This document shows positions 4,244 to 59,629 of a DNA stretch of 64,000 nt, piece by piece. Position 1 is the stretch's first letter. Every line of letters begins with the position of its first letter. Below the pieces are notes generated by a model. It saw nothing but the letters and a program-made list of their open reading frames with translations. It was not told the DNA's origin and did not search any database. Origin of the DNA: Dehalococcoidia bacterium. Lineage in GTDB: Bacteria > Chloroflexota > Dehalococcoidia > DSTF01 > JACRBR01. The stretch lies in assembly GCA_021731085.1 (NCBI GenBank), contig JAKFYB010000001.1, forward strand, positions 101,266 to 165,265, read 5' to 3'. The translations under genes were made by a program, and so were the position numbers.

Positions 4244-5371
4244 TCATGCGGCTCGAGCTGCTGTGCGTTCCTCGACATTTCCGGCAATCGCTTCGATATA
4301 GCGGTCGGCCGTGCGACCCCAACCGAAGTTGTCCAGCGTGTACGACCGCATGCGGGCCCCGGCGTCCACGATCGCCTGTCGCGGCAACGAGAGGAGACCG
4401 CGAATCTCAGCGGCCCACGCAGACGCGTCTAGCGGCGGAACAAGCACGCCGTTCCCTCCGTGATGGATCGCCTCGGGGATTCCGTCGAGATTCGAAGCCA
4501 GGACGGGAAGCCCGGAAGCGGAAGCCTCAAGTGCGACCAGGCCAAAGCCCTCCATATCGCCAGTCACAGGCACGTTTGGCATGACGAAGAGATCAGACGA
4601 GGCGTAAGCCGCCGCCAGAACCGAGTCGGTGACGCTTCCCAACATTCGAATGCGGTCATGCACACCCGCGATTGCAGCGGCTCGTTCGATTTCCCCCTTC
4701 ATCGCTCCGACACCGATGATGCAGTACGTGACATCCTCGGGAAGGCGTGGTAGCACATGCTCCACAAACCATGCGACGCCCTTGCGTTCGATCAGGCGAC
4801 CGACGGTCAGAACCACTCGCTCCCCTTCCCGCACTGCGGCCAGTTTGCTGAACTGTTGTCGCGCCTCCGTGGTTGGTTCAGGCAACGGGTTTATTCCCAA
4901 CGGGATCACTTCTGACATTGGATTGGGGCCAGTCCGCTCGTGCATCGCGGCCTCGGTTGCTGCACTGATCGGCATCGCCAAATCGATGCGGCGCAGGCCG
5001 TTGGTGATCACCCGCTGATAGATTTCGTTTTCGTACGTGACATCAAGACCGCACACCGACGCGGTCACTCGAATCCCGGTTGCGGCTTTGATCGCCGCGC
5101 CGACCGGTGCGAGCAACGCGTCTGCAAGATGGACGCTAGTAAAGCCGCCGGAGCGCACCTGACGGACTGCTGCTGTCGCCGCATACGGAAGAAACAGTGG
5201 CAGCGCCTTCTTTCCCCGATGGTTGATGAGGGAAACAATCTCGACGCGTTCCTCGAGGTGATTGTGGAGCTGCAACGCAAGGTTTTCCATCCCGCCCTGG
5301 GTCGGTGGATATGCGCGGGCAATGAACAGGATCTTCAAGTCTGTCGCGCGAACGGCACTAGCGAGACGCAT
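4244..5371 (-). CDS. Glycosyltransferase family 4 (GT-B)
   Basis: EGFGLVALEASASGLPV motif and overall GT4 architecture; 375 aa. Confidence 0.8.
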   Translation of the reverse strand: MRLASAVRATDLKILFIARAYPPTQGGMENLALQLHNHLEERVEIVSLINHRGKKALPLFLPYAATAAVRQVRSGGFTSVHLADALLAPVGAAIKAATGIRVTASVCGLDVTYENEIYQRVITNGLRRIDLAMPISAATEAAMHERTGPNPMSEVIPLGINPLPEPTTEARQQFSKLAAVREGERVVLTVGRLIERKGVAWFVEHVLPRLPEDVTYCIIGVGAMKGEIERAAAIAGVHDRIRMLGSVTDSVLAAAYASSDLFVMPNVPVTGDMEGFGLVALEASASGLPVLASNLDGIPEAIHHGGNGVLVPPLDASAWAAEIRGLLSLPRQAIVDAGARMRSYTLDNFGWGRTADRYIEAIAGNVEERTAARAA

Positions 5372-17833: not shown

Positions 17834-18721
17834 CTACGGCCGGACGCCGATGAGCTTCGCGACCTTGATCGCGTTGAACAGCGCGAGGGCGACGTACCAC
17901 TTCACGCGGGTGCGCGTAGCGTCCTTCGTCTCGAGGCTGCCGATCGTCTCGACCTGCAGGCCGCCGGGGGACGTCAAGCCGGCGACCGCGCCTTCGCCGA
18001 TCTGCAGCGCGTAGATGGTCGAGCAGTCGCTGCTGCTGCCGACGGTCTTCGCATCGCCGATGTAGTCGCTGATGGCGACGGGGATGCCGTCGTAGAACTG
18101 CACCATCTGGCCGAAGTCGTTGCGGTCGGCCTGCAGCAGGCTGCCCGTCGCGCGGGCGAGCGTGTTCAGCGAGCGTCGGGTGCGCTTGCTCATGAGGAGC
18201 ATGGCCGGCGGGCCGCCCTTCACTGCGTCCACCAACTCATCGAGCTTGGCGAGCGTGAGCGACGCGCCGTTTGCGCCCAGCGTCAGCGACTGGCCGCCGA
18301 CGGTGAGCTTATCGATGCCGTCGAAGGACTTCGTGTCGACGGCTGAGTCGCCGTTGAGGAACGTGTCCTCGAACTTCTGCTGCACGGCCTTCGCGCGGAG
18401 GCGAATGACGGCCGCCTGCAGGTCCTGCACGTTATTGCGCGTCGTCAGCAGGTAGTTGTCGATGTCGGCGTCGCCGCCAATGATCTTGAGCGGCGTCGTG
18501 ATCTGCGTGAACGTCGGCGTGCCCTCCGTCCATGTGTCGCCGACGTCGAAGAACGTTGCGGCGGGGTTCACGTTCTCGCGGTTGTAGGTGAGGCCGTTGC
18601 CGGTGATCTCGACGAAGGGCAGCATCTGGAGGATGGGCGACTCCTGCACGATCGTCTCGATGACGCCCTGGAGGATGATGTCGTTCGAGAGCTTCGCGCC
18701 CTCGGCCAGTGTGAGTGCCAA
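17834..18721 (-). CDS. HK97-family phage major capsid protein-like (no delta domain), TTG start
   Basis: Matches the Phage_capsid pattern: N-terminal VIETIVQESPILQMLPFVEITGNGLTY, FLNGDSAVDTKSFDGI (LNGDG motif), YDGIPVAISDYIGD (LLGRPV-like) and a C-terminal AIKVAKL. AAGGA RBS 8 nt upstream of the TTG. Confidence 0.65.
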   Translation of the reverse strand: MALTLAEGAKLSNDIILQGVIETIVQESPILQMLPFVEITGNGLTYNRENVNPAATFFDVGDTWTEGTPTFTQITTPLKIIGGDADIDNYLLTTRNNVQDLQAAVIRLRAKAVQQKFEDTFLNGDSAVDTKSFDGIDKLTVGGQSLTLGANGASLTLAKLDELVDAVKGGPPAMLLMSKRTRRSLNTLARATGSLLQADRNDFGQMVQFYDGIPVAISDYIGDAKTVGSSSDCSTIYALQIGEGAVAGLTSPGGLQVETIGSLETKDATRTRVKWYVALALFNAIKVAKLIGVRP

Positions 18722-18735
18722 TGTTGGTATCCTTG

Positions 18736-18759
18736 TGATCGGTGATCGGTGATCGGTGC
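18736..18759. repeat. Heptanucleotide tandem repeat (GTGATCG x3) in the capsid gene 5' UTR
   Basis: gtgatcggtgatcggtgatcggtg, 15 nt upstream of the capsid TTG start. Confidence 0.6.
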
Positions 18760-18773
18760 TCGTGAGCCACGTA

Positions 18774-18800: not shown

Positions 18801-18847
18801 TCACACGCGACCAGGTTCTTGATTCTCGGTTCTCCTTCCTCGCCGGC

Positions 18848-36819: not shown

Positions 36820-37080
36820 CACATACAGGCGCAGACGCGCAGCAGTAGGTCTGGAAACAGCCACTAGCGAGCCGGTGATGGTGCAAGACCGGCGGCACGA
36901 CCAGATCGAACTCAGCGCCGAGCTGCCGGGGTGAATGTGGCACAGTCGTCCTCGGCTGTGAGACCTAGCCCCGACCGGGTCGCGACCGTTATCACGCTCC
37001 GAGAGTCCTTCCATGGAAGGAAAGAAGGGTGGCACCGCGGGCCTTCAACCCCGTCCCTTTATGAGGACGGGTTTTTTGTT
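36820..37080 (+). promoter_or_regulatory. Candidate T-box riboswitch leader (specifier-loop candidate GAA-CUC-A, Leu) upstream of ilvBNC-leuACD
   Basis: Exact T-box consensus AGGGUGGCACCGCG at 37026-37039, immediately before a canonical intrinsic terminator whose 5' arm (CCCU) can pair with the T-box AGGG in an antiterminator. Stem-I-like helix GGUCUGG/CCAGAUC, distal hairpin 36871-36892. No credible ORF in the interval. Confidence 0.5.
37050..37077 (+). terminator. Rho-independent terminator (CCCGTCC-ctttatga-GGACGGG + TTTTTTGTT)
   Basis: 7-bp GC-rich stem, 8-nt loop and a U6 tract, on the plus strand only. Confidence 0.7.
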
Positions 37081-47760: not shown

Positions 47761-48874
47761 CTATTCGAACCCGATTCCCAGCTCCTCTACGGCCTCGGCG
47801 GTCCCTGCAATCAGTCCGTCGATATCCTCCGGGAATACATGGCCGATCGTGCCCACGCGGAACGTCTCCGCCTGCGAAATCTTTCCCGGATACAACACGA
47901 ATCGACGCTTCTTCATCGCGGTGTAGAACGCATCGAACGAGAACGCAGCGTTCGGATACAGGAATGACGTGATGATGGGCGACCGCAAATCCGCCGGCAG
48001 CAGCGTGCGAAACCCGATGCACTCGTACCCGGCGACCAGTCTGCGCGCGTTCTCGGTGTACCGCTCGTGCCGACGTTCAAGGCCGCCTTCGCCGTGCAAT
48101 TCCTGCAGCGCCTGCGCGAACGCCCGCACGATGTGGGTCGGCGACGTGTAGCGCCACTTCCCGCCCTTGTCCTCCATCTCCCGCCACTGGTCGTACAGAT
48201 CGAGACTCAGCGAGCGCGCTTGCCCGCCCGTCGCTTCCATCGCCGCCCGCCGCGCGATGACGAATGCGAATCCCGGCACGCCCTGGATGCACTTGTTCGC
48301 CGATGAGATCAGCCAATCAGCACCCATACCATCCATCGACATCGGTACGCCACCGAACGACGACATCGCATCCAGGGATGAAGCTCTTGTTGTACGTCCG
48401 CGCGATCTCGCCCGCCTCGGCCGCCGGGTTCAACATGCCCGTCGTCGTTTCGCAGTGCACCATCGCGACGTGTGTGATCGCGCGATCCACCTCAAGCGTC
48501 GCGACCATCTTGCGCAGATCCGTCGGCTCGGTCTCGGGCTGTGCGATCTCGGTGTGCGCGATGCCGAGGCGCGCAGCCATCTGCACCATGCGCGCGCCGT
48601 ACGCTCCGTTGTTCATGATCAGCAGATTGCCGTCGCGCGGAACACCCGTCCCCAGCGTCGCCTCGACAGCGAAACTGCCGCTGCCCTGCATCAGCACTGT
48701 GGTCAAATCCCGGCCGCCGCCTGCCAGCCGAACCAGTTCCGCGCGAATCTCCTGCACGATCGAGTGGTAGTCGTCGTCCCACGTGCAGAAGTCCTGCATC
48801 ATCACGGCTTTGACTGTCCGCGAAGTGGACAGCGGCCCCGGCGTCAGCAGCAGGTAAGGGATGTCATCGTCCAT
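47761..48874 (-). pseudogene. phnW: 2-aminoethylphosphonate:pyruvate aminotransferase (class V), interrupted by a +1 frameshift
   Basis: Two overlapping ORFs (48317-48874 and 47761-48366). The N-terminal half reads LLTPGPL..., the C-terminal half carries the PLP-lysine motif SSANKCIQG. Removing one C from the CCC run at ~48375-48377 (minus-strand sense) restores NKSFILDAMSSFGG. Confidence 0.6.
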
Positions 48875-48943
48875 GTTGAGAAGGTTACTGGTGACCGGTT
48901 ACAGGTGACAGCGCGCGGAGGGCAAAGGTGCATGGAGAATCTG

Positions 48944-49011
48944 ACCGACGACCGACGACCGACGACCGACGACCGACGACCGACGACCGACGACCGACGA
49001 CCGACGACCGA
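48944..49011. repeat. Heptanucleotide tandem repeat (GACCGAC), about 9.7 copies, between phnX and phnW
   Basis: Directly visible as gaccgacgaccgac... spanning ~68 nt in the intergenic spacer. Confidence 0.8.
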
Positions 49012-49012
49012 C

Positions 49013-49834
49013 CTACGGCCTCTCGCCGGACGAGATCCGCGCGTCGACCTCCTCGACGAGCCGCGGCACGTCGCGGATCGAATCGACGACGTCGTGTGCA
49101 CCCGCATCGAGCAGCTTGTCGCGGATCACGTCGAGCCTTCGCGATCGTTCCGCCGGGGGCATCGCCGTCAGATCCGCCGCCGACAGACCCATCTCGTTGC
49201 CCGTGGTAACGACGCCCGCGCTCCAGCAGCCCGCGCTCAGCCCTTCGCCGATGTCCGGCACGGTATCGCCAACCTTCAGCACGGCCTCCGCCGGATAGAC
49301 GCCGAGCGCCTCCATGTTGCGGTACATCATCCACGGAGCCGGGCGCGCCTGCGGGACGTCCGATGCGCACACCGCAAAGTCCGGCTTGTAGCCCTGCTTC
49401 TCGGCCGCCGCGTAACACGCCAACGCCGCCTCTTTGAAGTAGCCTGTGCTCGCGCCGACCTTGATGCCCCGCGCTCGCAGCTCCTCCGCGACGTTCGTGA
49501 TGCCCGCGATCAATCCGCTGTGCTTGGCGACACTCTCGACGGCCAGCGGGATCATGTCGAGGTAGATGCGCTCGATGTCCGACTTGGTAACAGGATTCGG
49601 GTGCGCGTCGAGCCACTGCCGCTCAGCGTCGGGCGCGGCCAGCAACGCCCGCAGATGGTCCTTCTTGTCGAGCCCCATCGGGCCGCGCGCGTCCGCATCG
49701 CTGATCGCGACACCCGCCCGCCGCAGCGCCTCAACGAACGGCGCCACCGGCGCGAAGCACCCGTGATCCACCGTCGTCCCAGCCCAGTCGAACACCACCA
49801 GTCGTATGCGCTCCGCCATCCAGACAGTATTCAC
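49013..49834 (-). CDS. phnX: Phosphonoacetaldehyde hydrolase (phosphonatase), HAD family
   Basis: HAD motif I in VVFDWAGTTVD, then the HAD core, directly upstream of phnW. Confidence 0.8.
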   Translation of the reverse strand: MNTVWMAERIRLVVFDWAGTTVDHGCFAPVAPFVEALRRAGVAISDADARGPMGLDKKDHLRALLAAPDAERQWLDAHPNPVTKSDIERIYLDMIPLAVESVAKHSGLIAGITNVAEELRARGIKVGASTGYFKEAALACYAAAEKQGYKPDFAVCASDVPQARPAPWMMYRNMEALGVYPAEAVLKVGDTVPDIGEGLSAGCWSAGVVTTGNEMGLSAADLTAMPPAERSRRLDVIRDKLLDAGAHDVVDSIRDVPRLVEEVDARISSGERP

Positions 49835-50006
49835 GGATCCGCCGCTGGCGGTAGCTCCGAGGTCCTCAAGCGACGTTGATAACCCCTAAGTGGCGTAGGG
49901 GCCGACCTGTGTGTCGGCCCGCATGCGACGGTGCTACGTCCCGTACCGGAACGTCGGTTGGCGTGCAGCGCAAGCCCCTGGCGGCCGATATCTAAGGGGT
50001 ACACCT

Positions 50007-51263
50007 ATGCGAACATGGCTGATCCTCGCTGGCCTTGCCGTATTCGGCGCATACATGAGTGCGTCCATCTTCGGATGGTGGGCACAGCCGATCGCCGCTT
50101 TCTTCGGCCGCCGCGAGTTCTGGTGGGATGCGGAAGACTTCGCCGTGTTTTACGCGGCAGGCACCCTCGTGGCGCGCGGCGACTTCGGCGACCTTTACAA
50201 CGCCAACGCCCACGCGGGGATCCAGATGCCGTTGCTCGTCGGCCATGACGAGCCGCTCGGTTTCTACAACCCTGCCTTCTTCGCGCTGCTGTTCGTCCCG
50301 TTCTCGTGGCTCCCGGCCGAAGATGCATATCGCGCATGGACCGGCGTGAACGTGCTCCTGATAGCCGTCGTCTGTGCGCTGCTCTGGCGCATCGCGGCCC
50401 CGCTCGACACGGTGTGGCGCGTCGTGCTCATCGTCGCGTTTCTCACGATGTACCCGCTGCCGTTCGGACTGCGCCTCGGACAGTTCTCACTCATCCTCGC
50501 AGCGTCGTGGGCGGGCGCCTACGTGCTCCTCCGCGAGGGCCGCGATCGAGCAGCCGGCTTCGCGCTGGCCCCGATGCTCATCAAGCCAGAGTTGCTCATT
50601 CCCATCACGATCTTCCTCGCCTGGAAGCGTCAATGGGACGTCCTTCGCACGCTCCTGCCAGTCGCCGCCGCGGCTGTCGTGATCTCCGTCGCGATGATCG
50701 GGCCCGTGGGCGTCTGGGACTACACCCTGCACATCGCTGATGCTGCGGGAGAGGGCGCCGGCAACATGTATGGCTGGAACGGCTTCCTCGCGCCGCTCTT
50801 CGCGCCCGGTGATCCGGGAAGCATGACGCCGTACGCGCTGCCGCTCGCGCTCATCACGTTCTCGGGTACGGCATTCCTCTGGCGCGGAGCCGTTTCCGCC
50901 ACGAGCAGCGCATTCCCGGTGCAGTGGCTCGCACTCACGCTCGCGACCGCGCTCTGGGACGCGCACATCTACATGCAGGACCTGATCATCATCGCCCCGG
51001 CCGCTGTGGCAGTCGTTGCGACTGCAACTGAGTGGCGGCGAACCCTCGCGGGCGCGGCGATTTTCGTTGGCTGGTTCATTATCGGCTATGGCAGCACACC
51101 GAGCGCGCAGTGGGGATTCAACCTCTTCACCGCGTACCTCGCCGCATGCCTCACGGCCATCGTCGCCTGGGAAGTGGGCGCCGCCATCCGCGCACGCACG
51201 CCGTCCGCTACGAACATCGACGCGGTTCCACCGTCGATCGCCCTCGAACGGAGGGCCGCCTGA
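50007..51263 (+). CDS. Polytopic membrane glycosyltransferase-like protein (DUF2029/GT87-like)
   Basis: About 11 TM helices and an MLIKPELLIP motif reminiscent of GT87. Start moved to MRTWLILAGL, which has an AAGGGG RBS. Confidence 0.5.
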   Translation: MRTWLILAGLAVFGAYMSASIFGWWAQPIAAFFGRREFWWDAEDFAVFYAAGTLVARGDFGDLYNANAHAGIQMPLLVGHDEPLGFYNPAFFALLFVPFSWLPAEDAYRAWTGVNVLLIAVVCALLWRIAAPLDTVWRVVLIVAFLTMYPLPFGLRLGQFSLILAASWAGAYVLLREGRDRAAGFALAPMLIKPELLIPITIFLAWKRQWDVLRTLLPVAAAAVVISVAMIGPVGVWDYTLHIADAAGEGAGNMYGWNGFLAPLFAPGDPGSMTPYALPLALITFSGTAFLWRGAVSATSSAFPVQWLALTLATALWDAHIYMQDLIIIAPAAVAVVATATEWRRTLAGAAIFVGWFIIGYGSTPSAQWGFNLFTAYLAACLTAIVAWEVGAAIRARTPSATNIDAVPPSIALERRAA

Positions 51264-53160: not shown

Positions 53161-53634
53161 ATGCGTAGAGTGCCGAGCCACGTCACGCTAGCCCGCTGCA
53201 GCGCCAGCGCCGTTGAGCTAGTCGCACTGATTTGCACCGGCGTCTTGCTTCTGTCGCACTCTGACTCAACATCCAGGTACGCCACGGGACTCACAGTCTG
53301 CGCCGCCATGACGGGGGCGGGTTGGCTTCTCCTGCGGATGCCGTACGTTGGTGCGCCGATCTGGCTTGGTCGTGCATTTCTCGTCGTGCTTTCTCTGAGC
53401 GCCTGGAGTTGGGTCCATGAGCGCACGAGCGCAAATCCATGTGCGCGCCAGTCGGACAGTGCCTGGGAAGACTGTGTCCAGCGGGGCGAGTACGCCGCCT
53501 ACTTCTTCGGAGGGGCAGCAGTGCTCGTACAGGTCTCGTCAACCCTCGGGGTGGTCGTGGTTCCCAATCCCGGATCCCGCCAGCCACCGAAATTGTTCAA
53601 GCCCACGGAAGGCTCGGAGGCAGGGCCTACCTGA
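53161..53634 (+). CDS. Hypothetical membrane protein
   Basis: Three or four hydrophobic helices and no recognisable motifs. Confidence 0.3.
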   Translation: MRRVPSHVTLARCSASAVELVALICTGVLLLSHSDSTSRYATGLTVCAAMTGAGWLLLRMPYVGAPIWLGRAFLVVLSLSAWSWVHERTSANPCARQSDSAWEDCVQRGEYAAYFFGGAAVLVQVSSTLGVVVVPNPGSRQPPKLFKPTEGSEAGPT

Positions 53635-53858: not shown

Positions 53859-55085
53859 GTGACAGCTCCATCCGCGATACCAGCGACCACAGCCCCGATC
53901 GAAGAGATCGCCGAGCGCGCTTTGGGCGGCGAAAGCCTCACTGCGGCCGACGGCTACGCCCTCATACACGCCGACGCCACCGACCTCACGCGCATGATGG
54001 CCGCCGCCTCCGAACTGCGCGACCGCCATCATGGCCGCACGATCACGTACTCCCGCAAAGTCTTCATCCCGCTCACAAACCTCTGCCGCCAGAAGTGCGG
54101 CTACTGCACCTTTGCCCGCGGCCCCCGCGACGAGATGGCGCACACGATGTCGCCCGACGAGGTGCTCGCCGTTGCCCGAGCAGGCAAGCGGCAGGGCTGC
54201 AAGGAAGCGCTCTTCTCGCTCGGCGAGCGGCCGGAGGAGACGTACGACTTCGTCCGCGACGACCTCGCCCGCTTCGGCCACAAGACGACATCCTCGTACG
54301 TGCGAGAGATGGCAGAACTCGTTCTACGTGAGACCGGCCTCCAACCGCACATCAACCAGGGCCTCATGGAGCGCGACCAGATCGTGTCGCTGCGTGAAGT
54401 CAGCGCCTCGATGGGCATGATGCTCGAGGTCGTCTCGATGCGCCTGCACGAAAAGGGCGGCGCACACTGGAACTGCCCCGGCAAGATCCCCGAGGACCGT
54501 CTCCGCACGATGCGCATCGCCGGCGAGGAGAAGGTCGCCTGGACGACGGGCATTCTCATCGGCATCGGCGAAACGCGTGAAGAGCGCGTCGACTCGTTGC
54601 TCGCCATCCGCGACCTGCACGAGGAGTACGGCAACATCCAGGAGGTCATCGTCCAGAACTTCCGCGTGAAGGACGACATCGCCATGCGCCACAAGGACGA
54701 GCCGTCCGTGTTCGAGATGATGCGCACGATCGCGACCGCGCGCATGCTGCTCGGCGGGGAGATGAACATCCAGGCGCCACCGAACCTCACGCCCGACGCG
54801 CACGGCATGTACCTGCTCGCCGGCATCAACGACTGGGGCGGCATCTCGCCCGTCACGAAAGACCACATCAACCCCGAACGCCCGTGGCCGAACATCCTCG
54901 ACCTGCGCGAGACCTGCGCCGACGCTGGCTTCACCCTCCGCGAGCGCTTCGGCATCTACCCCGAGTACATGCGCGAAGACCCCGGCTACGAAGGCTTCGT
55001 CCCAACCCGCATCCGCGAAACAATCGAATCAATGACCGACAAAGAGGGCCTAGTAAGCAAAGAAGCAGAAGCATGGACCCTGTAG
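53859..55085 (+). CDS. cofG: FO synthase subunit 1 (7,8-didemethyl-8-hydroxy-5-deazariboflavin synthase), radical SAM
   Basis: CRQKCGYCTF radical-SAM cluster motif and CofG-like length, directly upstream of cofH. Confidence 0.85.
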   Translation: MTAPSAIPATTAPIEEIAERALGGESLTAADGYALIHADATDLTRMMAAASELRDRHHGRTITYSRKVFIPLTNLCRQKCGYCTFARGPRDEMAHTMSPDEVLAVARAGKRQGCKEALFSLGERPEETYDFVRDDLARFGHKTTSSYVREMAELVLRETGLQPHINQGLMERDQIVSLREVSASMGMMLEVVSMRLHEKGGAHWNCPGKIPEDRLRTMRIAGEEKVAWTTGILIGIGETREERVDSLLAIRDLHEEYGNIQEVIVQNFRVKDDIAMRHKDEPSVFEMMRTIATARMLLGGEMNIQAPPNLTPDAHGMYLLAGINDWGGISPVTKDHINPERPWPNILDLRETCADAGFTLRERFGIYPEYMREDPGYEGFVPTRIRETIESMTDKEGLVSKEAEAWTL

Positions 55086-55196
55086 GGCGGCCCTGCGTGG
55101 CCGCCCATCGCTGAGCAGAACGAGATAGTAGGGGCGGCCCTATGTGGGCGCCCATCGTGGACAACACAGAGCGCGATAGCGAAAGCAGACAGCCGA

Positions 55197-55224
55197 TGAC
55201 CGACGACCGACGACCAACGACCGA
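55197..55224. repeat. Heptanucleotide tandem repeat (GACCGAC x4, one variant) just 5' of the cofH start
   Basis: gaccgacgaccgacgaccaacgaccgac, the same unit as the phnX/phnW spacer repeat. Confidence 0.6.
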
Positions 55225-55237
55225 CTTCGCTCTGCCG

Positions 55238-56524
55238 ATGCGCGTCGACACCGCCGTCGCTCGCATCCTCGAACGCGCCCTCGAAGGCCACGACATCACC
55301 GTCGACGAAGCCGTCACGCTGTTCGAGACCAGCGGCCCGTCGCTTACGGCGACGATCCAAGTGGCCGACGAACTACGCCGCCGCACCGTCGGCGATGTCG
55401 TCACGTACGTCATCAACCGCAACATCAACTTCACCAACGTCTGCATCAAGCACTGCGGTTTCTGCGCCTTCTCTCGCGAATACCGGGAGGAGGCCGGCTA
55501 TTTCCTCCCGCCCGAGGAGGTCATCCGCCGCTCGCAGGAAGCGTGGGATCTCGGTGCGCGCGAGATCTGCGTGCAGGCGGGTCTGCCGCCCAAGATGGAC
55601 GGCAACTACTACATCGAGCTCACGCAGGCGATCAAGCGCGCCCTCCCCGACATGCACATCCACGGCTTCTCGCCCGAGGAAGTGCTGTACGGCGCCGTCC
55701 GATCACGCTGCACCATCCCGGAGTTCGTACAGCGACTCAAAGACGCCGGCGTCGGCAGCCTCCCCGGGACCTCCGCCGAGATTCTCGACCAGGAAGTGCG
55801 CGACGTCATCGCCCCCGGTCGCATCACGAAAGATCAGTGGATCGAGGTCATCACTTCAGCCCACAAGACCGGTATGCGCACGACGTCGACCATCATGTAC
55901 GGCCACGTCGAGACCGTCCGCCACCGCGCCGAACATATCGGCCTGCTGCGCGACATCCAGAAGGAGACCGGCGGCTTCACCGAGTTCGTGCCGCTGAGCT
56001 TCATCGCCGAAGAGGCGCCGATGTTCAAGAAGGGCCTCATCGAAGGACTGAAAGGCGGCGCGACCGGCGCCGAGGTTATCAAGATGTACGCCGTCTCACG
56101 CATCATGCTCAACAACTGGATCCCAAACATTCAGGCGTCGTGGGTGAAGGAAGGCCCGAAGCTCGCGCAGATGGCTCTCGACGCCGGCTGCAACGACTTC
56201 ATGGGCACCCTCATCAACGAAAGCATCAGCACGTCGGCCGGCGCCATCTTCGGCCAGCGCATGGCTCCGCGCGAAATGCGCGCCCTCATCCGCGAGATGG
56301 GCCGCATCCCCGCCGAGCGCAACACCCTCTACGGCATCAAGAAGCAGTTCGGCACGGTCGAAGACGAACACTTCGACCCCCTCGACCTCGTCGACGGAAG
56401 CGACGAACGCTTCGGCAGCTACGTCATGCTCACCCAAGACGACCGCTTCAAGTTCGAAGACAACTACCACCGGGCCGAACTCCCCGAGAAGCCAGCGCCC
56501 GAAAAAGTTGCGACTCAGCTCTAG
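55238..56524 (+). CDS. cofH: FO synthase subunit 2, radical SAM
   Basis: CIKHCGFCAF radical-SAM motif and CofH-like sequence throughout. Start chosen at MRVDTAV after the heptamer repeat; the ORF track begins at 55142. Confidence 0.85.
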   Translation: MRVDTAVARILERALEGHDITVDEAVTLFETSGPSLTATIQVADELRRRTVGDVVTYVINRNINFTNVCIKHCGFCAFSREYREEAGYFLPPEEVIRRSQEAWDLGAREICVQAGLPPKMDGNYYIELTQAIKRALPDMHIHGFSPEEVLYGAVRSRCTIPEFVQRLKDAGVGSLPGTSAEILDQEVRDVIAPGRITKDQWIEVITSAHKTGMRTTSTIMYGHVETVRHRAEHIGLLRDIQKETGGFTEFVPLSFIAEEAPMFKKGLIEGLKGGATGAEVIKMYAVSRIMLNNWIPNIQASWVKEGPKLAQMALDAGCNDFMGTLINESISTSAGAIFGQRMAPREMRALIREMGRIPAERNTLYGIKKQFGTVEDEHFDPLDLVDGSDERFGSYVMLTQDDRFKFEDNYHRAELPEKPAPEKVATQL

Positions 56525-59525: not shown

Positions 59526-59629
59526 TGAGTGTGATGTGGCACAGCCGCCCCGGCTGTGACTGTGATCGTTCACAGCCGCCCGCCTGTCAGCGTGTGGTGC
59601 AGCCGCCCCCGGCTGTGAGCGAGCCAGAC

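Follow-up and report, generated by a model that had tools for sequence, protein, structure and literature searches.

Tandem repeats of a heptanucleotide unit have been described in cyanobacteria, Xanthomonas, Burkholderia, Beggiatoaceae, and some Bacteroidetes. Those of cyanobacteria go by the family name STRR. A search of the literature on heptamer repeats in Chloroflexota returned nothing relevant. Here we report on three such arrays in a 64,000-nucleotide (nt) stretch of DNA, hereafter the window, from a Dehalococcoidia bacterium of the phylum Chloroflexota (contig JAKFYB010000001.1 of assembly GCA_021731085.1, positions 101,266 to 165,265 of the forward strand). Array 1 lies between the phosphonate genes phnX and phnW, array 2 at the 5′ end of cofH, and array 3 upstream of a phage capsid gene. 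In Xanthomonas, GGGAATC repeats are 89-93% intergenic, occur on both strands and also in convergent spacers, and lie on average 28 nt from the upstream (5′) open reading frame (ORF) and 160 nt from the next one (Rehm et al. 2015, PMC4692102). They stand between corresponding genes in related species with extensive variation in length and sequence, and have no link to pathogenicity (PMC4692102). The corresponding repeat of Nostoc is GGGGAYT (Rehm et al. 2015, PMC4692102), and the same source cites Mazel et al. (1990) for heptanucleotides repeated in tandem in Calothrix and Anabaena.

As related in two later papers (PMC4679880, PMC4692102), Mrazek et al. (2007) found heptanucleotides to be the most abundant long simple sequence repeats (SSRs) in most repeat-rich genomes, and proposed that they arise through slippage of the polymerase. 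According to the former paper, the length of 7 nt was possibly that of the segment held by the polymerase. In marine Beggiatoaceae, 169 sets of TAACTGA repeats lie a few nucleotides upstream of gene starts in the forward orientation (MacGregor 2015, PMC4679880), and CspB binds heptamer repeats with one protein per heptamer (PMC4679880). In Haemophilus influenzae, the (ATCTTTC)n repeat in the 5′-untranslated region (5′-UTR) of hmw1A and hmw2A is phase-variable, ranges from 11 to 63 copies between and within strains, and controls an adhesin (PMC12721329). This repeat depends on a long hairpin, with an arm that is G-rich and complementary, and on processing by RNase III (PMC12721329).

Three heptanucleotide arrays in the window

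Tandem Repeats Finder (TRF) reported the three arrays, and the raw sequence agrees with each of them. Array 1 consists of 10.0 copies of GACCGAC with 100% matches at positions 48943-49012. Array 2 was reported as 4.7 copies with 88% matches at 55193-55225, and in the GACCGAC register it reads GACCGAC GACCGAC GACCAAC GACCGAC (55198-55225). Array 3 comprises 4.0 copies of GTGATCG with one mismatch at 18735-18762. The perfect runs within them are 10.0, 2.57, and 3.43 copies long, respectively. The 7-nt units follow one another head to tail in at least three copies without spacers, which is the form of heptanucleotide long SSRs.

The chance expectation was estimated by order-2 Markov simulations of the window, with a threshold of at least 2.5 perfect copies. 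Three period-7 arrays were observed versus 0.05 expected per 64 kb, and the longest simulated one had 2.57 copies. With a mismatch tolerance of 15% over three copies, the window contained three regions of period 7, compared with 1, 0, 0, and 0 regions of periods 5, 8, 10, and 11. After merging of rotations and strands there are 1170 heptamer classes, and two of the three arrays would fall into one class by chance in about 0.4% of cases (composition-weighted). The heptamer arrays that a first-pass annotation of this DNA, made from the letters alone, had pointed out at the three loci are therefore all there, beyond chance, and its view that a unit shared by two loci is not accidental is borne out as well. 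Isolated copies of GACCGAC (9 observed, 11.2 expected) and GTCGGTC (4 observed, 8.7 expected) are not enriched in the window, which rules out a dispersed binding motif. General lag-7 periodicity was sought across the intergenic DNA of the window and was found nowhere outside the discrete arrays. These results demonstrate that the arrays are real and non-random, and that the signal is specific to tandem arrays of period 7.

Array 1 lies in the spacer between phnX, encoding phosphonoacetaldehyde hydrolase (49013-49834, minus strand; NCBIfam TIGR01422, 312 bits versus a cut-off of 220), and phnW, encoding 2-aminoethylphosphonate:pyruvate transaminase (47761-48874, minus strand; TIGR02326). Since the minus strand carries both genes, the unit is GTCGGTC in gene sense, and the array is (GTCGGTC)10. 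It starts at the base after the TAG stop codon of phnX (49013-49015), that is, 0 nt from the stop, covers 70 nt of the 138-nt spacer, and leaves 68 nt between its end and the phnW ATG at 48874. The first-pass annotation had named the right unit, with about 9.7 copies at 48944-49011 that filled the spacer; the copy number, the limits, and the filling of the spacer needed correction.

The RNA of the spacer is predicted to be less structured than its composition would give. Its minimum free energy was −44 kcal/mol versus a mean of −55.8 kcal/mol for shuffled sequences (z = +2.87), with all 200 dinucleotide shuffles folding at least as well, and the DNA strand folded no better than shuffles. A search of positions 48300-50100 found no promoter-like or terminator-like sites. 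On these grounds array 1 as a hairpin or terminator was ruled out. An Rfam search gave no family match at any of the three array loci, and a known RNA family was likewise dismissed; the only Rfam match in the window was an unrelated T-box leader (RF00230, 110 bits, 36823-37061, plus strand). A plus-strand ORF that runs through array 1 (48928-49209) and would encode DRRPTTD repeats lies antisense to phnX, and for this reason was not accepted as a gene.

Between array 1 and phnW, the ATG is directly preceded by a degenerate heptamer/14-mer leader (48875-48911, minus strand; TRF period 14, 1.9 copies at 48883-48909). It reads CTGTCAC CTGTAAC CGGTCAC CAGTAAC CTTCTCAAC and has no Shine-Dalgarno motif. 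In another register, the roughly 40 nt that lead up to the ATG show the succession GTCACCT GTAACCG GTCACCA GTAACCT both in the window and in the relative L005. The leader is probably an old, decayed heptamer array. The half-site of the Escherichia coli Pho box is CTGTCAT, and phnW is a typical phosphate-starvation gene. The leader heptamers at 48883-48911 (minus strand) resemble such half-sites, with a spacing of 7 nt and not 11 nt, and are kept only in L005; the resemblance may be a coincidence.

The phnW gene itself is divided into two ORFs, 48317-48874 and 47761-48366 (both minus strand), that match positions 3-163 and 167-360 of TIGR02326. The split is due to a 1-nt insertion near 48366-48376 accompanied by neighbouring substitutions, where the window has TTCATCCCTGGATGCG and relatives have TTCATCCTCGACGCG. 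In alignments, phnW is intact in L005, L132, and L001. The frameshift marks a gene that recently became a pseudogene, or else an error of assembly. Its position beside array 1 is compatible with relaxed constraint.

Array 2 (55198-55225, plus strand) lies at the start of cofH, encoding FO synthase subunit 2 (55196-56524, plus strand; NCBIfam TIGR03551, 476.6 bits), which follows cofG (53859-55085, plus strand; annotated by profile match). The first G of the array is the G of the ATG at 55196, a start that is conserved in relatives: ATGACCGAC is also the annotated cofH start in L001, and L132 starts with ATGACGACCGAC. The array of L132 consists of 4.4 copies of GACGACC, and differs from that of the window by CGA>AGA and CCA>CCC, both synonymous, and by one extra ACG codon (a 3-nt indel). 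In the homologue P0129, which is 85% identical, MTD-FALPL stands where the window has MTD-DRRPTTD-FALPM, exactly seven residues or three units fewer. The conserved start, the restriction of differences to synonymous and 3-nt changes, and the seven-residue gap together suggest that array 2 is most likely translated, as MTDDRRPTTD. It would thus lie inside the cofH coding sequence and supply codons 2-10, for T D D R R P T T D, in an N-terminal tail that is hypervariable, and would have been seeded by the start region. The four copies previously placed just 5′ of the cofH start, at 55197-55224, are present, one of them with a mismatch, but they are shifted by one position and most likely lie inside cofH rather than upstream.

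In the public record, cofH of the window begins at the ATG at 55142 (460 amino acids), 18 codons before the start that relatives conserve. The N-terminal tails of CofH proteins that cluster at 90% identity (homologues P0123-P0325) are unrelated, ranging from about 13 to roughly 70-100 residues, the conserved anchor not having been located in the long ones. Examples are DDRRPTTD, TNHQSP..., KHQTAGGKGQTAKDKGETA, SKQQTANSK, and KHQTAGGKGQTAK..., and several of these tails can be read as translated heptanucleotide arrays. The cofG-cofH spacer also contains two hairpins resembling repetitive extragenic palindromic (REP) elements (GTAGGG-CGGCC-loop-GGCCG-CCCATCG) at 55082-55110 and 55129-55157, the first of which overlaps the cofG stop. 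L001 (about 4780-4900) and L132 (about 1550-1610) have hairpins with other stem sequences at the same place. Further REP-like sequence was seen at 59535-59621, as a cluster of three tandem palindromic units of about 29 nt with the core CACAGCCGCCCCGGCTGTG. About 460 nt upstream of cofG, the 14-nt unit GTCGTGCATTTCTC occurs twice (53369-53395), possibly as another repeat built from two heptamer blocks.

Array 3 (18735-18762, minus strand), which is GTGATCG on the plus strand and (CGATCAC)4 in capsid sense, precedes the gene for an HK97-fold phage major capsid protein (17834-18721, minus strand; Pfam PF05065, NCBIfam NF045672). It lies between a GC-rich hairpin and the Shine-Dalgarno-like motif AAGGA, directly 5′ of the latter and 13 nt before the TTG start codon at 18721, which aligns with the ATG of related capsid genes. 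As the array is upstream of the Shine-Dalgarno motif, its copy number leaves the distance from motif to start unchanged. A weaker array, GGTTCTT GATTCTC GGTTCTC, shares the capsid spacer (18814-18834, minus strand; TRF 3.0 copies, 78% matches), just after the stop of the upstream gene (18848). The unit and start-proximal position that the first-pass annotation gave for array 3 hold, with four copies (3.4 perfect) at 13 nt from the start in place of three copies at 18736-18759 and 15 nt. Profile matches confirmed its guesses for phnX, phnW, cofH, and the capsid gene. Its generalization that all arrays are immediately upstream of gene starts fails, since array 1 adjoins the phnX stop and array 2 is most likely inside cofH.

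Heptamer arrays in relatives and in other genomes

The closest named homologues of CofH and PhnX come from metagenome-assembled genomes (MAGs) of Chloroflexi and Dehalococcoidia. Syntenic relatives of the window are L005, with a PhnX in the same 90% cluster and DNA 81% identical, and L132, with a CofH 93% identical, followed by L126 and L004 (PhnX 81% identical), L001 (80%), and L131 (75%). The (GTCGGTC)n array was absent from the phnX-phnW spacers of all six. In L005, the closest relative, unrelated sequence follows the phnX stop, and the spacers of the more distant relatives measure only 26-42 nt. In two Logan contigs with a near-identical PhnX (P0122), the gene coordinates imply a 91-nt spacer, too short for the 70-nt array. 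Ten perfect copies and the absence from all relatives thus point to a recent, lineage-specific expansion, and on this sequence evidence array 1 is probably a young product of slippage.

In the same spacer, L132 has 3.6 copies of CCTAACA before phnW, in an array that also supplies the phnX stop codon, L001 has about five units of TTGTAGT/GATTAGT, and L131 has 2.7 copies of AGTTCGT; no heptamer array was found before phnW in L126 and L004. Counting the window and L005, 5 of 7 genomes have a period-7 or period-14 array in the phnX-phnW spacer, and these arrays are built from at least three unrelated units. By eye only, no Shine-Dalgarno motif was visible before phnW in the window, L005, L001, L131, and L132, and L004, which has no array, has GAGGA. 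The 5′ end of cofH showed arrays in all four genomes for which DNA was at hand: GACCGAC in the window, GACGACC in L132, 4.3 copies of CCAACAT in L001, and 3.7 copies of ATCCAAC together with two further arrays in L131. In viral contigs with relatives of the capsid protein (52-72% identity), other heptamer units flank the capsid gene, for example AAGTAGC in 4.4 copies upstream (L147) and GCTATTG in 5.4 copies downstream (L152). These comparisons reveal that the sites stay while the sequence of the array is replaced.

Exact-protein look-ups with PhnX, CofG, and P0001, made for a second assembly of the species of the window, gave no other contig. A metagenome scan for the conserved phnW leader, with a 31-nt degenerate pattern, gave no match, and one with the PhnX protein gave only five loci, the closest of them 81% identical. 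In L001, L002, and L003, from three independent samples of a related species with 99.97-100% identity, three heptamer arrays of 4-5 copies were identical. Downstream of cofH, L001 (3243-3455) and L002 were compared at a 112-nt tandem duplication with a REP-like hairpin; upstream of the duplication region, these two sequences (99.97% identity) differ by about 220 nt, and their heptamer arrays are identical.

The first-pass annotation had also proposed a genome-wide search for (GACCGAC)n with three or more copies. Scanning for (GACCGAC)3 in one genome per species yielded at least 120 loci and showed the unit to be widespread and mostly intergenic, with a tendency to lie close to the upstream stop codon. 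Among the matches listed, to which the figures on placement below also refer, 45 were from Chloroflexota, 24 from Actinomycetota, and 20 from Acidobacteriota, and the remainder came from Victivallales, Myxococcota, Desulfobacterota, Cyanobacteria, and others. Several loci occurred per genome, with at least 11 in one Chloroflexia MAG; the genome of the window itself was not among the listed matches. The presence of GACCGAC at two loci of the window is explained by this wide recurrence of (GACCGAC)n in public genomes. Five contigs (L007, L043, L079, L080, and L116) carried (GACCGAC)n at the contig end or within 30 nt of it, so that such arrays act as break points for short-read assemblies.

The excess of period 7 was also observed beyond this unit. 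In 853 kb around the listed matches there were 76 other heptamer arrays of at least three perfect copies, versus 12, 5, 11, and 13 arrays of periods 4, 5, 6, and 8. In 138 kb of sequence from the clade, 7 of the 13 arrays with at least three copies had period 7, and a further 7 arrays had period 14. These data indicate that heptamer arrays are frequent in this Chloroflexota lineage. With gene calls based on G+C content at third codon positions (GC3), (GACCGAC)n was intergenic in 77 of 118 classifiable arrays (about 65%). The spacers comprised 30 tandem, 18 convergent, and 11 divergent ones, and in the tandem spacers 21 of 30 arrays were nearer to the upstream stop codon (p ~0.04). Relative to transcription, the unit read GACCGAC in 19 cases and GTCGGTC in 11, and the two GACCGAC arrays of the window are themselves in opposite orientation with respect to their genes. 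Therefore, (GACCGAC)n is bound neither to gene starts nor to a particular strand.

Origin of the arrays and alternative explanations

We consider it likely that the arrays are heptanucleotide SSRs of a known bacterial kind (long SSR or STRR-like), found here in Chloroflexota, which would be born by slippage and kept where they do no harm. A 7-nt word already in the local sequence would be duplicated by slipped-strand mispairing during replication, and the array would then grow, shrink, mutate, and decay. It would survive where harm is small, in intergenic DNA, especially just after stop codons, and in short intercistronic spacers. Survival would also be possible in protein tails of low complexity that are dispensable, which would tolerate no steps but in-frame ones of three units (21 nt). 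In the window, array 1 would lengthen the phnX-phnW spacer by 70 nt of unstructured RNA and modulate phnW expression at most, array 2 would have been seeded by the cofH start ATGACCGAC, and array 3 would be a spacer element that sets the hairpin apart from the ribosome-binding site in front of a prophage capsid gene. The arrays do look like products of replication slippage, in keeping with their earlier description as slippage-prone tracts, and we infer slippage as the generating process, and near-neutrality.

Several points weigh against this explanation. The account presumes slippage and gives no reason for the preference for 7 nt. At the same two spacers, heptamer arrays are retained across genomes only 75-80% identical, and those just before phnW take the place of a recognisable Shine-Dalgarno motif, so that the arrays could be selected leader elements and not neutral. 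The taxonomic shares rest on the matches listed and on one unit, so that they are not an unbiased census, and the gene context comes from a crude heuristic caller.

The persistence of arrays at the phnX-phnW spacer and the cofH 5′ end across genomes of 75-93% identity, while the unit sequence changes, would suit selected cis-acting leaders, either unstructured regions for Shine-Dalgarno-independent initiation or rows of sites for a protein of the S1 or cold-shock family that binds single strands and covers 7 nt. The heptamer leaders of phnW that lack a Shine-Dalgarno motif, set against GAGGA in the arrayless L004, and the low structure of the spacer RNA also speak for such leaders, and MacGregor (2015, PMC4679880) argues likewise for TAACTGA in Beggiatoaceae. 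However, array 1 adjoins a stop codon, not a start codon, and is absent from all relatives. There is no rule of orientation, with GTCGGTC in phnW sense, GACCGAC in cofH sense, and the 19:11 division among the listed matches elsewhere; many arrays are in spacers between convergent genes, which contain no gene start; and a cycle of SSR birth and death can give persistence at one site without function. As a general account, selected leaders are therefore unlikely, although older degenerate arrays that abut starts in place of a Shine-Dalgarno motif may have a regulatory leader role. Rather doubtful, too, is a maintained class of elements in this lineage, more than debris of mutation, in which certain spacers (phnX-phnW, the cofH 5′ end, and the capsid flanks) would be kept as heptamer arrays across great evolutionary distances while the units turn over, as unstructured Shine-Dalgarno-independent initiation regions or as platforms for proteins with a 7-nt footprint; or else the replisome of the lineage would prefer a 7-nt slippage step, which would also write tails with a 7-residue period, as in CofH.

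Contingency or phase-variation loci, where frequent gain and loss of units would reversibly alter leader length (phnW, capsid) or reading frame (cofH), had been proposed in the first-pass annotation, and we regard them as improbable. Long perfect SSR tracts can be hypermutable, and by analogy with other SSRs the ten perfect copies of array 1 are long enough for this. A heptameric SSR in the 5′-UTR tunes expression of H. influenzae hmw1A (PMC12721329), and a change of one unit in array 2, which is most likely in coding sequence, would shift the frame. The several MAG contigs that end inside such arrays could reflect heterogeneity in length. Against these points, the genes are housekeeping ones (phosphonate catabolism, F420 biosynthesis) or code for a structural protein of a phage (capsid), and do not serve the cell surface, host interaction, or restriction-modification. 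Array 1 falls outside any frame and is separated from the phnW ATG by 68 nt, and it has neither promoter-like hexamers around it nor a hairpin of the hmw type; the perfect copies of array 2 number only 2.6, and in-frame changes alone set related sequences apart from it; a related species shows three heptamer arrays unchanged across its three samples; and elsewhere the GACCGAC unit is found between convergent genes too, and in either orientation. No switch architecture was seen, and nothing in these data points to a switch; for the 10-copy tract a switch is improbable. An artefact of assembly or sequencing that made array 1 or its copy number is the most remote of the explanations. Repeats shared by loci do break short-read assemblies, as the MAG contigs ending in arrays show, and the phnW frameshift beside array 1 could be an error. 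But the 70-nt array is shorter than ordinary reads and has unique sequence on both sides, equivalent arrays are present in at least 120 independent assemblies, including long-read MAGs and complete genomes, and the frameshift is accompanied by neighbouring substitutions and is no simple homopolymer slip.

With heptanucleotide SSRs as the preferred explanation, the bacterial preference for 7-nt tandem repeats reaches Chloroflexota. Phase variation, if true, would have given an environmental, non-pathogenic bacterium candidate switches, and is not supported. The arrays can most likely be translated, and enzymes more than 90% identical then bear unrelated N-terminal tails. In practical terms, arrays of this kind break short-read assemblies and mislead the calling of start codons, as in the public cofH record, which is 18 codons too long.

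Comparison with known heptamer systems

Among the known systems, the phase-variable repeat of H. influenzae hmw1A shares with array 1 that a heptanucleotide SSR lies upstream of a coding sequence and, by analogy, would be transcribed with it. It differs in that the array 1 spacer forms no hairpin (z = +2.87) and in that the genes concerned are metabolic; the hairpin that marks the hmw system is missing here. Like the TAACTGA repeats of Beggiatoaceae, the arrays are intergenic direct repeats of a heptamer, with RNA that is predicted to lack structure and a unit found at many loci, also in distant phyla. Leaders with TAACTGA repeats often have no canonical ribosome-binding site; here, by eye, no Shine-Dalgarno motif shows before phnW in the five genomes named above, and AAGGA stands before the capsid gene. 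The degenerate leader of phnW and the array before the capsid gene lie 8-13 nt from their starts. Unlike TAACTGA, a single dominant unit that is start-proximal and forward in orientation, array 1 is 68 nt from the start and abuts a stop, the orientation is mixed, and the units are diverse.

With the STRR sequences, the arrays have in common that short tandem heptamers are scattered in the non-coding DNA of one lineage, with several units per genome. STRR is defined for cyanobacteria; phylum, base composition, and units are different here, and the present arrays give no sign of a small fixed set of units. In comparison with Xanthomonas and Nostoc, the units of the window are not G-rich and allow no G-quadruplex, many units occur in one lineage, one array is most likely translated, and the phylum is Chloroflexota. 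As in Xanthomonas, whose described pattern agrees with the present one in each point, the arrays are found on both strands and in convergent spacers too, and are not linked to pathogenicity genes. They also share with the repeats of both genera units of 7 nt arranged head to tail, a strong excess that is confined to period 7, a mostly intergenic location, and a position closer to the end of the upstream ORF. The period-7 excess, the intergenic, stop-proximal placement on either strand, and the differences in length and sequence between relatives are those of heptanucleotide long SSRs.

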